A stretch of DNA of 64,000 bases from an uncultured Lachnospiraceae bacterium (lineage in GTDB: Bacteria > Bacillota > Clostridia > Lachnospirales > CAG-274): NCBI GenBank assembly GCA_964526435.1, contig CAZGIC010000002.1, positions 633-64,632 on the forward strand. The letters are read 5' to 3'. Below, one piece after another: positions 7,008-52,282 of the stretch; within the stretch, counting starts at the first letter, position 1; the number at the start of each line of letters is the position of its first letter. A program made the position numbers and the translations under genes. Under the pieces are notes generated by a model. That model was not told the origin of the DNA. It did not search any database and saw only the letters and a list, made by a program, of their open reading frames with translations.

Positions 7008-10000
7008 ATGAAGAAAAGAATTTTTTGTGCCGGTATTGCAATTGCAATGACATTGAGCAGTTTGGGACCGGTACCTTCTATAGCTGCTATTGATAACAGC
7101 TGGATTGCAGACTGGACAGGAACAGATGGCAGCATTAACTTCAGTATTACAACAACAGATGATAATACAGTTGTAATGGAGAATACAAAGGTTAATAACG
7201 GTAAGTTTTCTGACAGTGAAGACAGTATAATTTATTATGCAAAAGAATTTGATGTGTCAGATGATTTTGAAATAAGTGCAAGTGTAACAATAGATGAATA
7301 TAATACAATGGATGAAAGCAGTAACCCTCAGCAGGGATCTGTAGGCATTGCTGTTTTAGACTCCCTTTATCATAAAACAGATGAAATTTCTTATGATGAC
7401 GGACTTTTTCTTGGAACATATGCTGAAAGTTCTTCAGATGATTTGACTTTCAGAGCTATGTCAAGAAATTCATCTTCTGTAAAAGAAATAAGTGAAGCTC
7501 TTTCTGACTCTATTTCAAATACAGGCAGTAATTTAGGTACATTTAATCTTTCTATAAAAAAAGTGGGCAATGCTTATACTTTGACATGTGATGATCAAAG
7601 TGTGGTTGTTGAAATGACTTCTTTTGAAAATACAGTTTACCCATGCTTATATATAGCAAGGAATGTTAAAGCAACTTTTTCTAATGTTAAAGTGGTAAAG
7701 GCATCTAAAAAGCCTGTTTCAATGAGTATTGAGGGAAGTTATAAGACAGATTACATATATGGTGAGGATATAGACCTTACAGGCATTAAAGTTATGGTAA
7801 CTTATGATGATGGGTCAACAGAAGAAGTAAATGATTATCTTATAAAAGGTTTTAACTCTAATAAAACAGGAAAACAGGTAGTTACTCTTGTAGAAGGTGA
7901 CGCAAAGGCAACAATATCTGTTCAGGTAAGTGATCTTAAAGTTACTGATATAACAGTTGATTTTGAACCTATAAAAACTACATATGCAAAAGGTGATTTA
8001 TTTAAAACAGAAGGTATACAGGTGACAGCTACATACAGCGATGGCACAAGTGAAATACTTGATGAAGACGAGTATGTTTTCAAAATTGATAACAAAGCTA
8101 TTGAAGAAGGAGATGCTGTTACAAGTACAGGCAATAAGCAGGTTAAAGTTTACAGAACTGATGAAGAGGGTATATCTTCAAATAATGTTTCAGGAAATTT
8201 TTATATAACTGTTAATAAAAACTCTATCGATACAATAACAGTAAAGGAACCTAATAAGGTTATTTATTATTTAGGCGATGAATTTGATGCTACGGGAATG
8301 ACAGTGACATCAAGTTATATTAACAATTCAGGTAATACTGTTGAAGAAATATTAAAAAAATCAGACTATACTGTTTCAGGTTTTGACAGCAGTACCATAG
8401 GAGATAAAACAATTACTGTAACATCTGTTGCAAATCCTGATGTTACAGCAACATTTAAAATAAATGTGTTTGATAGACAGCCTCAGAGTATACAGGTGTC
8501 AGAATATCCAAGGACTACTTATGCCGTAGGAGAAGAGTTTGATTCAAGTGATATGATAGTATCTATTGTATACGATAATGGTGATATTGAAGCTACAGAT
8601 AATTATACTGTTGATACATCTGATTTTGATACAAGTGCTGTTGGAACAACTTCTGTAACTATTGTATCTGAAGGTTTTCAAAGCGTTACACTGCCTGTAA
8701 CTGTAGTTGCAGAAATGAATAATGTGTGGAGAAGTGCTACATTCGGACAGAGTTCAGGTTATGATAAGAGTTCTGATCTTGTAGGTGTTACTGCTGACAA
8801 TTACGGTACAGTTGAGGGAAAAATAAATGTTAAAGCATGGGACGGTGCCGGAAAAATTACCAATGACCATGATGGTATGACATATTATTATACTCAGATT
8901 GCAGGAGACAGTGATTTTAAAATAAGTGCTGATATTACAGTAGACAGGTATCTTGAACATGATAACGATGATACAAAGAGAAACGGTCAGGAAGCCTTTG
9001 GTATAATGGCAAGAGATGTTATACCTCTTGAAGGAACTGATGGCAGTATTACAATTGACCCTAATTCAGCAGTAGTTGATGATGAAGGTGTTGCTGTACC
9101 TATGAATAATAATACAGTATTTGCGTCAAATATGGTTATTTTAGGTGGATATTCAGGTACAGGTTGGCCTACAGATACTACATCTGCTTCTTATGAAAAA
9201 AATGCAAATATAAACAGAATAAATCTTCTTATAAGAGATGGCGTAACAGCTATTGACGGTGGAGGAACAAGAATAGGACCTTATGCGGTAAGTTCTGATT
9301 TTCCTAAGGAAGGAAATAAGTACAGGCTCACTCTTGAAAGATTAAACGGTGGTTTAATGGCTAAATGCTATAACTATCAGACTGATGAAACAATGGAGTA
9401 TTACTATTATGACGACAGTTTTCTTACAACACAGAATCCCGATGTTGCATATGTAGGTTTCTTTGCAGCAAGATGGGCGGAAATAACTGTTGAAAACGTA
9501 GACTTCTATGAAACAAGCAAGGAAACTGACAGAACTATTGAAAGCAGTGAACAGAGTGTTGAAACTGCAGAACTTTATTTCAGAGATGATCCTTATTCAA
9601 CAAGTTCTGTTTATGAATTTGATCTTGATCTTGACAATGCATCAGGTACTATTACAGTAAAGATGAATGACAAGATTATTGCGCAGGACAGACCTATTTC
9701 AGATGTGGAACATTTTACAGCTAATTTAAATACTAATTCAGTAAATAAACTTGTTGCAGTGTTTACACCTGATGACAGTCTTAATTTAACAAGCTATGAA
9801 CCTATTATTATAAGGGAAGAAATATATCATAAGAGCATAGATCAGTCAGTGAAAACTGTATATGCAAGTCCTGACGGAAGCTTTAAGGGTGATGGTACAG
9901 AAAATAATCCTTATGATATTTATACAGCTATAGGTTTCCTTCAGCCGGGACAGACTCTTATACTTAAAAACGGAACATATAAGCTTACAAAGCCTATTGA

Positions 10001-15053: not shown

Positions 15054-15323
15054 GTCCTGTGCTAGTCGGGGAGGTAGCGGTGCCCTGTAGTCTGCAATCC
15101 GCTTAGCAGAGATTATGTCCGCACTGAGGCTTTAGTTTGTGGGGTCAGCCTGCAGGCTTTTGATGTTGACGATTGAGTCTTGCACAACGGGAACCTGTGA
15201 ACCGTGTCAGATCCGGAAGGAAGCAGCACTAAGCAGTCATTTTCGTGTGTTGCAAGGTAGCTTGGTCTGAGTTGAAACCTGTTGTAACGCCCGGAGGCTA
15301 CTGTCGAAGTGGGATGCACAGGA
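15054..15323 (+). ncRNA. ffs: Signal recognition particle RNA, long Bacillus type (scRNA) with Alu domain
   Basis: GTGCTAGTCGGGGAGGTAGCGGTGCCCTGTA (Alu domain) and CAGATCCGGAAGGAAGCAGCA (domain IV) match the B. subtilis scRNA pattern. 5' TCCTGTGC pairs with 3' GCACAGGA, and a T8 run follows. It is a local GC-rich island. Confidence 0.85.
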
Positions 15324-48646: not shown

Positions 48647-48886
48647 GTAAAAAACTTAATAAAATTAATTGCCTAGTGATTTGCTTGGTGTTAGCAATAG
48701 CTAACGACTTTAAATAATAATGATTATTATTTATTTAGGGTTTTTGTATTGACATAATATTAACATATGTGTTATTATAATGCTGTCAGAAATATAAATA
48801 TTCATAAGCACTGTTAATTAAATTTACAGAGTTTCTGACAGCGTTATTATTTACAACTTTTTTTATACGATTTGGAGGATTAAAAA

Positions 48887-50941
48887 ATGAATCAAGAATG
48901 GAATGGCTTTGTTAAAGGTGTCTGGCAAAAAGAAATTAATGTACGAGATTTTATTCAGAAAAATTATACACCTTATGACGGCGATGATTCCTTCCTTGCC
49001 GGTCCTACCAAGGCAACAGAAGAACTTTGGTCACAGGTAATGGATCTTTCAAAGAAGGAAATAGAGGCCGGCGGTGTCCTTGATATGGATACAAAAATTA
49101 TTTCAACTATTACATCTCATGATGCAGGATATTTAGATAAGTCAAAGGAAAAAATTGTAGGTTTCCAGACAGACAAGCCTTTTAAACGTTCATTACAGCC
49201 TTACGGTGGTATCAGAATGGCTGTTAAAGCATGTAAAGATAATGGTTATGAAGTTGATCCTGAAATTGTTGAGTTTTTTACAACTCACAGAAAAACACAT
49301 AATGCAGGTGTTTTTGATGCATATACAGATGAAATGAGAGCCTGCCGTTCAAGCCACATAATTACAGGACTTCCCGATGCTTATGGAAGAGGAAGAATTA
49401 TCGGCGACTATAGAAGAATTGCACTTTATGGTGTAGATAGACTTATTGAAGATAAAATCAATCAGAAGAAAACAACAAAGACAATAATGTTTTCTGAAGT
49501 TATAAGAGACAGAGAAGAGCTTTCAGAGCAGATAAGAGCTTTAGAGGATTTAAAGAAGCTTGGTGAGATTTACGGTTATGATATTTCAAGACCTGCAAAC
49601 AATGTTCAGGAAGCTATCCAGTGGCTGTATTTCGGATACCTTGCTGCAGTTAAGGAGCAGAACGGTGCCGCTATGTCATTAGGCAGAACATCAACATTTA
49701 TTGATATTTATGCTGAAAGAGATTTAAAGAACGGCACATTTACAGAAGAAGAAATACAGGAATTTGTTGACCACTTCATTATGAAGTTAAGACTTGTTAA
49801 GTTTGCAAGAACACCGGAATACAACGCATTATTCTCAGGAGACCCTACATGGGTAACAGAGTCAATAGGCGGTGTAGGTATTGACGGCAGACATATGGTT
49901 ACAAAGATGAGCTTCAGATACCTTCATACTTTACAGAATTTAGGTACAGCTCCTGAACCTAACTTGACAGTACTCTGGTCTACAAGACTTCCAATGAATT
50001 TTAAGAGATTTTGTGCAAAGACTTCAATTGAATCTTCATCAATACAGTATGAAAATGATGACCTTATGAGAGTTACACACGGTGATGACTATGCTATTGC
50101 CTGCTGTGTATCTTCAATGAGAGTAGGTAAGGAAATGCAGTTCTTCGGAGCAAGAGCAAACCTTGCAAAGTGCCTTCTCTATGCAATAAACGGTGGTGTT
50201 GATGAAATTACAAAGAAGCAGGTAGGTCCTAAATACAGACCAATTACATCTGAATATCTTGATTATGACGAAGTACTTGACAGATACAAGGATATGATGA
50301 AATGGCTTGCAGGAGTATATGTAAATGCTCTTAACATTATTCACTATATGCACGACAAGTATTGCTATGAAAAGCTTCAGATGGCTTTACATGACAGAGA
50401 GGTGACTCGTTGGTTTGCAACAGGTATTGCAGGTCTTTCAGTTGTTGCCGACTCACTTTCAGCTATTAAATATGCCAAAGTTAAGACAATAAGAGATGAG
50501 AACGGTATTGTTGTGGATTATGAAGTAGAGGGTGATTTCCCTAAGTACGGTAATGATGATGACAGAGTAGACTCAATTGCAGCCACACTTGTACATGAAT
50601 TTATGCAGTATGTAAAGAGTAATCACACATACAGACATGGTATTCCTACAACATCAATACTTACAATAACTTCTAATGTAGTTTACGGTAAGAATACAGG
50701 TTCAACACCTGACGGAAGAAAGGCAGGAGAGCCATTTGCTCCGGGTGCTAATCCAATGCACAGAAGAGATTCACATGGTGCAGTAGCTTCTCTTTCATCT
50801 GTATCTAAACTTCCTTTCAGAGATGCACAGGATGGTATATCAAATACATTCTCAATTATACCAAATGCTCTCGGAAAAGATGCAACTGTATTTGCAGGAG
50901 ATCTTGAAGTTGATTTAGATCTTAATTCAGAGGATAAGTAA
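48887..50941 (+). CDS. pflB: Pyruvate formate-lyase catalytic core, lacking the C-terminal glycyl-radical domain
   Basis: 684 aa. The catalytic Cys pair lies in [23 protein letters not shown]. The ORF ends ..[36 protein letters not shown], where canonical ~750-760-aa PflB runs on into the radical domain. Confidence 0.9.
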
Positions 50942-50963
50942 TTGATCTTAAAAGGATGATAAA

Positions 50964-51188
50964 ATGGAAGATAAAAGAATTGATGATTTAGTTTCATTAA
51001 TTGATAACTTTATGTCAAATGACGGTGGACATATGAATGTTACCGTCAATGAAAACGGCGAAGTTAAAACAGACGAAGAATACATCGATAAGGATGTTGT
51101 AACGCTGGGCTGTCTTGACTGTGCTGACAATATGGCTTGTTCAGTACCTACTCTTTTTGAAGGTATGGACAGAGATGAAAATAAATAA
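50964..51188 (+). CDS. 74-aa glycine-loop-less paralogue of the N-terminal part of the glycyl-radical domain
   Basis: IDDLVSLIDNFMSNDGGHMNVTVNENGE parallels [28 protein letters not shown] of the next ORF. It then diverges into an acidic stretch and GCLDCADNMACS. AAGGA lies 7 nt upstream of the ATG. Confidence 0.5.
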   Translation: MEDKRIDDLVSLIDNFMSNDGGHMNVTVNENGEVKTDEEYIDKDVVTLGCLDCADNMACSVPTLFEGMDRDENK

Positions 51189-51214
51189 CATTAAAAATAT
51201 AAGGAGGATTTTAT

Positions 51215-51454
51215 ATGGCTAACGAGCAGCAGATTGATAATTTAGTTAATATTCTTGATGGCTATGCAGAAAAAGGTGGTCATCATTTAAATGTAAATGT
51301 ATTTACAAAGGAAACTTTGCTTGATGCACAGGCTCATCCTGAAAAATATCCACAGCTTACAGTAAGAGTTTCAGGATATGCTGTAAACTTTAATAAACTT
51401 ACAAAGGAACAGCAGGACGAGGTTATTTCAAGAACTTTCCACGATAATATTTAA
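51215..51454 (+). CDS. Free-standing glycyl-radical domain protein (GrcA/YfiD-like), equivalent to the C-terminal ~70 aa of PflB
   Basis: 79 aa with GGHHLNVNV and [34 protein letters not shown] (glycyl-radical signature RVSGYAV). AAGGAGG lies 7 nt upstream of the ATG. Confidence 0.85.
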
Positions 51455-51462
51455 ATTTTTTT

Positions 51463-51491
51463 AAAAGGCGGTTTACTAACCGCCTTTTTTG
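51463..51491 (+). terminator. Rho-independent terminator between the radical-domain ORF and pflA
   Basis: AAAAGGCGG-TTTACTAA-CCGCCTTTTTT. Confidence 0.7.
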
Positions 51492-51538: not shown

Positions 51539-52282
51539 ATGAAAGGTCACATACATTCCCTTGAAAGTTTTGGAAGTGTGGACGGGCCTGGTATACGTTT
51601 TGTTGTATTTTTTAAGGGTTGTCCAATGAGGTGCAAATACTGTCACAATCCCGATACATGGGAGCCCGGAGGCGGTACTGAAATGACAGTTGATGAAATA
51701 ATCGATGGTTTTAACAGAAACAGGGCTTTTTATAAAAACGGAGGAATAACAGCTACAGGGGGCGAACCCCTTATGCAGATCGATTTTGTAACAGAGCTTT
51801 TTAAAAGGTGTAAGGAGGAAAATATACACACATGTCTTGATACTTCAGGCATTACATTTACTCCTGATAATACAGTAAAGTTTGATGGGCTTATTAAATA
51901 CACAGATCTTGTAATGCTTGACATAAAACATATTGACCCTGTGGAACACATTAAACTTACGGAACAGAAGAATGACAATATTATTGAATTTGCAAGGTAC
52001 CTTGACAAAAATAACATACCTATGTGGATACGTCATGTAGTTGTACCGGGAATAACAGATGATACAAATTATCTTTTCAGGCTTGGTGAATTTATAGGTA
52101 CATTAAAGAACGCAAAAGCTCTTGATGTACTTCCCTACCACACAATGGGCGTTAAAAAGTACGAAGCATTAGGTATGGAATATCCTCTTAAGGGTGTTGA
52201 GGCAATGGATAAGAATAAGGCAGTAGAATGTAAAAAGGTAATATTAAACGGTGTAAGAAAGGCAAGACAGGAAAGAAAATAA
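51539..52282 (+). CDS. pflA: Pyruvate formate-lyase activating enzyme (radical SAM)
   Basis: Motifs GSVDGPGIRFVVFFKGCPMRCKYCHNPD and GGEPL. Confidence 0.9.
   Translation: MKGHIHSLESFGSVDGPGIRFVVFFKGCPMRCKYCHNPDTWEPGGGTEMTVDEIIDGFNRNRAFYKNGGITATGGEPLMQIDFVTELFKRCKEENIHTCLDTSGITFTPDNTVKFDGLIKYTDLVMLDIKHIDPVEHIKLTEQKNDNIIEFARYLDKNNIPMWIRHVVVPGITDDTNYLFRLGEFIGTLKNAKALDVLPYHTMGVKKYEALGMEYPLKGVEAMDKNKAVECKKVILNGVRKARQERK

Follow-up and report, generated by a model that had tools for sequence, protein, structure and literature searches.

What does a small open reading frame do when it lies between the two genes of a split pyruvate formate-lyase (PFL), resembles the docking part of the radical-bearing subunit and lacks the glycine loop? 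Among glycyl radical enzymes, PFL is the most widespread; in gut Clostridia it is a main formate and acetyl-CoA route. In the 64,000-nucleotide stretch of Lachnospiraceae DNA analysed here (the window), such an ORF of 74 residues, ORF74, occupies positions 50964..51188 and was read by the initial annotation as a possible "decoy" of the radical domain. We find that split PFLs carry a conserved two-Cys tail and that, in a large subset of them, the tail is a separate small protein equipped with a docking anchor, of which ORF74 is an example.

A split PFL locus with an additional small ORF

All features given below lie on the + strand. A promoter-like site (48749..48778; TTGACA-18-TATTAT, with TG), which scores 11/12 in a consensus scan and is a pattern match only, precedes the PFL core (48887..50941). 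The core is 684 residues long and ends before the final barrel strand, with no glycyl radical domain: it matches the PFL equivalog TIGR01255 with 1123.7 bits over model positions 2-666 of 744 only and, in Pfam, PFL-like plus positions 1-49 only of Gly_radical. Its end corresponds roughly to E. coli residue 677, the radical domain being a separate gene. ORF74 starts with ATG 22 nt after the core stop. Its position between core and radical ORF was given correctly by the initial annotation, the two neighbours being identified by TIGR01255 and NF038360, respectively. The ribosome-binding site then proposed, AAGGA (50952..50956), 7 nt 5' of the ATG, is indeed plausible, with an anti-Shine-Dalgarno (anti-SD) duplex energy of -5.6 kcal/mol; an SD-like element precedes the small ORF in 69/83 orthologues. 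Next comes ORF79 (51215..51454), with a strong SD, AAGGAGG (51201..51207; -11.1 kcal/mol). It encodes a stand-alone glycyl radical subunit of 79 residues with the RVSGYAV loop, matching NCBIfam NF038360, "autonomous glycyl radical cofactor GrcA3", with 170.8 bits (cutoff 158). ORF79 covers Pfam Gly_radical positions 50-106 and aligns in the PDB to E. coli PflB 681-757 and YfiD 67-126. It is followed by a terminator-like hairpin with a T run found by scan (51463..51488; only weak sRNA/terminator-type Rfam matches) and by the gene for PflA, the radical SAM pyruvate formate-lyase activating enzyme (51539..52282; TIGR02493, 304.6 bits, cutoff 231.75).

An intron or RNA element interrupting pfl was rejected, since Rfam at gathering and at permissive thresholds returned nothing relevant in the core-ORF79 interval (noise and the terminator-like hairpin after ORF79). 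The sole gathering-level Rfam match in the window is a large bacterial SRP RNA (RF01854, 179.9 bits) at 15057-15321. Core and ORF79 lie in a common reading frame, separated by 273 nt (91 codons), and ORF74 is read in a different one; at a further locus, L032, core and small ORF are in one frame, with one stop codon and 13 codons between them.

The split itself is widespread. A search with ORF79 returned more than 8000 candidates at E<=1e-10, the best 120 of which were stand-alone proteins of 79-111 residues, several of them named GrcA3 or GrcA by NCBI; sources among the matches listed include Blautia, Sellimonas, Oliverpabstia and Allofournierella, among others. Contigs of Blautia-type, Lachnospiraceae and Allofournierella origin carry a core of 690-705 residues followed by GrcA3 and PflA, with no small ORF. 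No full-length PFL occurred among the 80 metagenome loci nearest to ORF79, nor among the 120 core fragments that most resemble the tail of a two-piece core; the fragments from this second search, 99-227 residues long, entered the survey of tail sequences only. PFL is permanently split in many Lachnospiraceae and their relatives, either in two pieces (core and GrcA3) or in three (core, small ORF and GrcA3). A literature search for "GrcA3" found no paper, and searches on split PFL and on the PFL of Hungatella turned up nothing specific; spare parts of the YfiD type are the only ones named in a 2026 review of glycyl radical enzymes, which is silent on enzymes whose radical domain is always a separate gene (PMC13450708).

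ORF74 belongs to a large family of three-piece loci. A word-seeded search gave 54 homologue clusters (46-93% identity, 49-88 residues) and an exhaustive profile search gave 219 representatives at 50% identity (E<=1e-3). The best 150 of these are nearly all stand-alone proteins of 60-90 residues, and there is no full-length PFL among these 150 listed matches. Conservation and dN/dS in related genomes, named in the initial annotation as a check, came out in favour of the gene: relatives occur in at least 145 species genomes (scan with one genome per species), and the small ORF is intact in 83/83 loci analysed. The closest species match is Candidatus Gallispira edinburgensis (96%), and cultured hosts of relatives include Hungatella hathewayi DSM 13479, Lacrimispora spp. 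(L. xylanisolvens among them) and Clostridium boliviensis. The order core, small ORF, GrcA3 (the RVSGY ORF), PflA was found in 79/79 loci holding the upstream core (80 fetched), and is identical in three further lineages with unrelated flanks; in three-piece loci, the small ORF always sits between core and GrcA3. A phage origin was rejected, as viral contigs contained no relative of ORF74.

Against its three nearest orthologues, ORF74 has Nei-Gojobori dN/dS values of 0.07, 0.05 and 0.10, the first resulting from 15.5 synonymous and 6.5 non-synonymous differences to the nearest one. Over 244 pairs, the median is 0.124 for the ORF74 family, as against 0.045 for the core and 0.048 for GrcA3. Within ORF74, residues 1-28 have a pooled pN/pS of 0.22, the linker (29-47) has 0.37, the Cys motif (48-69) 0.24 and the acidic end 0.56; thus, anchor and Cys motif are under tighter constraint than linker and tail. 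ORF74 is a real gene under purifying selection. The SD of GrcA3 is stronger than that of the small ORF in 63/83 loci by anti-SD duplex energy, which hints at sub-stoichiometric synthesis of ORF74, and smaller amounts than the radical subunit would suit a factor better than a fixed subunit.

The initial annotation recognised no family for ORF74, and this still holds. Every source names its relatives "hypothetical protein" (e.g. UniProt D3AAH9, WP_104437800.1), the precomputed Pfam field is empty for 54/54 homologues, and a Pfam and NCBIfam scan of ORF74 returned no curated family, only a partial GrcA3 match and sub-threshold noise (cobW, 14 bits; a CobW-related selenoprotein, 17 bits).

The two halves of ORF74

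Residues 1-32 (50964..51059) are a copy of the helix-loop-strand at the N-terminus of GrcA3, as indicated by BLASTP, hhalign and AF2. The resemblance noted earlier between the first ~30 residues of ORF74 and ORF79 is well founded: BLASTP aligns residues 3-28 with 4-29 (10/26 identical, E 2e-6), and hhalign of the family profile against ORF79 gives 96.2% (E 2.4e-9), over columns 1-32 versus 1-33 only. Likewise, the GrcA3 HMM NF038360 matches ORF74 over positions 2-30 only (E 3e-4, 20.7 bits versus the cutoff of 158). This segment, the anchor, is equivalent to E. coli PflB ~681-709, i.e. a helix (~681-692) followed by the barrel strand beta10, and the residues common to ORF74 and GrcA3 (I, D, L, V, L, D, F/Y, G, H, N, V) are those conserved across all PFLs in PflB 681-709. 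The similarity ends before the glycine loop: RVSGY, present in ORF79, is absent from ORF74 and from 149/149 aligned relatives, and Pfam PF01228 (Gly_radical) gives no match to ORF74 even at E<=1. ORF74 is therefore, as first described, a paralogue of the radical ORF's docking part that lacks the glycine.

AF2 models of ORF74 alone, run with 54 and with 149 sequences, reached overall pLDDT values of 57.5 and 63. They contain a helix (residues 4-18) and a strand (26-28) at pLDDT 70-79, a linker with pLDDT below 50 at residues 38-44, and a Cys half in coil. On its own, ORF74 is thus predicted to form a helix-loop-strand and to be disordered in its C-terminal half, which is what one would expect if it folds upon binding a partner. 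A Foldseek search of the model against the PDB gave a best E of 2.4, which is meaningless, and a PDB sequence search with the family profile gave nothing at E<=10.

The anchor is followed by an acidic linker, residues 33-50 (51060..51113), which is variable in length and sequence according to the family alignments, pN/pS and AF2; in the alignments it spans about 10-45 residues. Residues 51-74 and the stop codon (51114..51188) encode the two-Cys motif LDCxxxxACxVPTLFEGMD and an acidic end, and the protein terminates in ...LDCADNMACSVPTLFEGMDRDENK before its stop. The initial annotation saw a Cys triad here, of which two members stand: among 149 aligned family sequences, with a mean column identity of 26%, C59 is invariant and C53 is present in at least 90%, whereas C50 is Ser in most relatives.

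The same annotation placed the Cys segment where the glycine loop would be. The segment is no novelty at that position; it is homologous to a C-terminal tail that most split cores carry in cis. In two-piece cores, the tail begins after ALGK(D/E)(D/E) with x[VI]Fx[GD]D[LI]E[VF][ED]L, an element retained in all split cores, and continues with C-x(1-7)-C-x-[VIE]-P-[TN]-L-x-x-G-[LIM]-D and acidic residues, one example ending in ...ALGKDDRIFAGDIEVNFDCTNGACVSPTLFEGLDTDED before the stop. ORF74 carries the Cys motif of this split-PFL tail: hhalign of residues 51-74 against 33 cis tails gives 97.4% (E 9.3e-12), and an HMM of the family C-motif, searched against 7759 six-frame segments, finds its matches at the very C-terminal end of two-piece cores (E 6e-8 to 3e-4). 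In the window, the core tail after ALGK (50879..50941) consists of the Cys-free first half of the split-PFL tail, followed by the stop. Against the cis-tail HMM, the window halves score 33.1 bits (core tail) and 31.3 bits when taken alone, while a virtual fusion of the core tail up to ...VDLD with ORF74 from C53 onwards scores 72.2 bits; real cis tails score 79-81 bits.

We then compared both architectures across 148 split loci. Tail Cys were present in 0/92 cores with a small ORF and in 55/56 without one (Fisher p 3e-40 for small ORF versus cis Cys tail, with loci counted without phylogenetic correction). Among the 56 cores without a small ORF, 50 have two or more tail Cys, five have one and a single one, L164, has none, and a small ORF never coincides with a cis Cys tail (0/148 loci). 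When the last 306 core residues are clustered by UPGMA, two-piece and three-piece cores are intermingled in the resulting tree, which is shallow and unrooted; over this stretch, the closest pair of opposite type shares 94% identity. Thus, two-piece enzymes have the Cys motif on the core and three-piece enzymes have it on the small ORF, with hardly any locus showing it in both places or in none; one in-frame deletion or insertion converts either architecture into the other.

Together, the two profile matches, the complementary distribution and the fusion score show ORF74 to be a mosaic, its sequence combining a copy of the GrcA3 N-terminus, a variable acidic linker and what appears to be the detached end of the core tail, now carried on a GrcA3-type anchor.

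Proposed role of ORF74 and alternatives

What would such a mosaic do? ORF74 is probably the trans-encoded equivalent of the cis tail and an accessory subunit of PFL. Its anchor would dock in the core groove where the helix and beta10 of GrcA3 bind, and would deliver the Cys motif in trans to where a cis tail would place it, the motif presumably doing the same job in both cases. How docking would help is suggested by work on E. coli. YfiD duplicates PFL beta10 as y-beta1, a strand which pairs with beta9 and thereby holds the glycine loop in the barrel (PMC8683613). In oxygen-cleaved PFL, residues 696-733, i.e. beta10 and half of the loop, must move aside for YfiD, yet their removal weakens YfiD binding and activation; a PFL truncated at residue 695 reaches full activity with YfiD once it has been activated (PMC8683613). 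By analogy, ORF74 may be both a glycine-less stand-in and a recognition or hand-over element: it would cap and stabilise the open barrel of a GrcA3-free core and would then aid GrcA3 binding or its activation by PflA. Upon GrcA3 insertion, the subunit's own beta10 would displace the ORF74 anchor, the Cys motif remaining associated as it is in the cis enzymes.

This stand-in or hand-over mechanism is tentative, and we put it at somewhat below even. Weighing against a stand-in is that the anchors of ORF74 and GrcA3, if they use the same groove, cannot share one protomer, and the hand-over is a speculation. Also, the cis tail does not include an authentic beta10 copy, so that the cis and trans forms may work differently. 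The motif is not strictly essential, as L164 is without the module and five tails have a single Cys. Taken as a whole and with its mechanism included, an accessory small subunit of a naturally split PFL is nevertheless our best explanation of ORF74, one on which we would place even confidence.

A bolder reading, which we consider unlikely, is that split PFLs are "hot-swappable": the core would be kept, the 80-residue GrcA3 exchanged after oxygen damage, and the two-Cys module, whether in cis or in trans as ORF74, would be the latch controlling this exchange. In such a scheme, the latch would depend on a thiol/disulfide or on a metal; it would close off the empty groove, respond to oxidation and permit a fresh GrcA3 to bind or to be activated. 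If true, ORF74 would be a diffusible, anchor-bearing latch, a type of regulator undescribed for any glycyl radical enzyme.

The rival that survives best retains the role suggested initially, that of a pure decoy or negative regulator, whereby ORF74 would occupy the groove in competition with GrcA3 and hold the core in an inactive state, e.g. until conditions are anoxic. We rate it as rather improbable. The docking determinants of GrcA3 are kept in the N-terminal 30 residues of ORF74, the glycine loop is missing and the translation signal is weaker than that of GrcA3, all as the proposal would have it; competition of the ORF74 anchor for the beta10 groove is in itself plausible. However, the same Cys motif is covalently part of two-piece cores and must there tolerate an active core-GrcA3 enzyme; its compatibility with active cis enzymes weakens a pure decoy or competitor. 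In addition, the promoter/terminator pattern scan places ORF74 in one transcription unit with the very genes it would inhibit, and there is no evident regulatory input. "Decoy" therefore probably has the wrong sign and, since the motif must coexist with GrcA3 in two-piece enzymes, "accessory or hand-over module" fits ORF74 better.

Less probable still is a redox or metal switch, in which C53 and C59 would form a disulfide or bind a metal and so gate the groove or shield the active-site thiols under oxygen. The pair might act by itself or across the dimer, or it might involve the active-site Cys pair or the His pair of GrcA3. The retention of C53 in at least 90% of sequences and the invariance of C59 in so divergent a family, the small residues between the two and the survival of the pair at variable spacing in cis tails would all suit such a switch, as would an enzyme class known for its oxygen sensitivity (PMC13450708). 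Against this, an Fe-S cluster or a Zn site would need partners beyond two Cys, there are tails with a single Cys or without any, and no metal-binding family matches above threshold, the 14 bits of cobW being noise. A switch of this kind is compatible with the accessory-subunit explanation.

Lower again we place the possibility that ORF74, or the tail, recruits or positions the activase PflA on GrcA3, replacing the disordered N-terminal 60 residues of E. coli YfiD that are missing from GrcA3. GrcA3 is only 79 residues long and begins at the helix, pflA is always next in order, and ORF74 is very acidic (pI 4.05) beside a neutral PflA (pI 7.08). This charge argument is weak, however, and ORF74 does not resemble the RVSGYAV peptide bound by PflA. 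Finally, there is next to no likelihood that ORF74 is a spurious ORF, or what a partial duplication has left behind without function: the shortness of ORF74, the half that duplicates a neighbour and the low confidence of the isolated AF2 model might be cited for it, but a dN/dS of 0.05-0.12 (with 15.5 synonymous versus 6.5 non-synonymous changes relative to the nearest orthologue) and strict synteny in a large family, an intact frame in 83/83 loci, both motifs kept across 219 diverged clusters and a distribution complementing that of cis tails contradict the decaying partial duplicate considered at first.

Known systems and variant loci

Among characterised proteins, the GrcA-type spare parts (E. 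coli GrcA/YfiD, phage T4 Y06I, GrcA2 and GrcA3) are, like ORF74, small stand-alone proteins encoded with PFL that contain a copy of the PFL C-terminal helix and beta10; in YfiD, this anchor (y-beta1) sits in the barrel. Unlike them, ORF74 has no glycine loop and no C-terminal radical-domain helix and cannot carry the radical; it stays at 20.7 bits against the GrcA3 cutoff of 158, without a Gly_radical match, and its second half is a Cys motif absent from GrcA-type proteins.

By analogy, the closest functional counterpart of ORF74 would be the stub of oxygen-cleaved E. coli PFL (residues 696-733; Andorfer et al. 2021, PMC8683613), which is also glycine-less and made of beta10 and the segment after it. 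The stub was proposed as a recognition element for YfiD; it duplicates the incoming strand and yet promotes binding and activation (PMC8683613). It differs in being a damage product covalently attached to the core, whereas ORF74 is genetically encoded and separate, adds the preceding helix and ends in a two-Cys motif instead of half a glycine loop. In sequence, the closest relative is the unnamed cis tail of two-piece split PFLs (Blautia, Lachnospiraceae and Oscillospiraceae MAGs), which is homologous to ORF74 residues 51-74 and mutually exclusive with it. That tail is fused to the core straight after x[VI]FxGD[LI]E[VI][DE]L and includes neither a copy of helix and beta10 nor a separate gene; in the window, the Cys motif is on a separate ORF, the core tail is Cys-free, and the two halves rebuild the cis tail.

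BSS beta/gamma and HPD gamma are likewise small Cys-containing polypeptides encoded beside a catalytic subunit and its activase. The BSS and HPD small subunits bind [4Fe-4S] clusters, each through at least four Cys, and they are not paralogous to the radical domain. ORF74 differs from the BssB/BssC and HpdC type in having two conserved Cys only, which speaks against a BSS/HPD-type Fe-S small subunit, and it has no sequence match to such subunits in Pfam or NCBIfam. ORF74 thus appears to be an accessory module that belongs to a split glycyl radical enzyme, is genetically encoded, bears an anchor and lacks the radical glycine; we found no curated family and no paper for it.

The two architectures form a natural cis/trans pair in which the recognition, insertion, activation and replacement of a radical subunit can be tested, and they bear on a question raised by the E. 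coli work, that of a recognition element for a spare part. Cultured organisms with the system include Hungatella hathewayi DSM 13479 and Lacrimispora xylanisolvens DSM 3808. For annotation, they give reason to drop "hypothetical" for ORF74 genes and "truncated" or "partial" for the cores.

Several loci depart from the two common layouts. L164 (metagenome contig JAEEGG010069558.1), the sole locus of 148 with neither small ORF nor tail Cys, looks like a natural loss of the module: its core tail ends in ...FAGDLDLDKLKKQI before the stop, GrcA3 lies ~20 nt downstream and the core clusters with three-piece cores. Blautia-type and Allofournierella cores (L096, L101-L104, L010, L014 and others) have a shorter tail, ...F(E/D)L(E/P)xDCACCEPN..., which the ORF74 C-motif HMM misses; its skeleton, C..C-x-P-N, is alike, and it may be the same motif. 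Divergent small ORFs occur in L134, L144 and L170 and in L107 and L147, with a GrcA3-like N-terminus, the LFEGLD part missing and ends of the form ...C(G)xKGACCQPTE... or ...FCTxCCGE...ACNTP....

Two cores are broken. In L004 (2919-4973), the PFL core is in two ORFs of 310 and 355 residues, and in L064 (Lacrimispora xylanisolvens ASCUSBR21, NZ_CP070896.1) it is interrupted, each through a frameshift or pseudogene or through an assembly error. In L014, from Allofournierella massiliensis, phage-type genes (8317-9573 and neighbours; terminase large subunit) lie ~2 kb downstream of pflA. In L130, the spacer between a Cys-tailed core and GrcA3 (about 2750-2990) is 240 nt long and holds a long inverted repeat, with no remnant of a small ORF in it; the core-GrcA3 spacers of L112, L121, L123, L135 and L165 are also unusually long.
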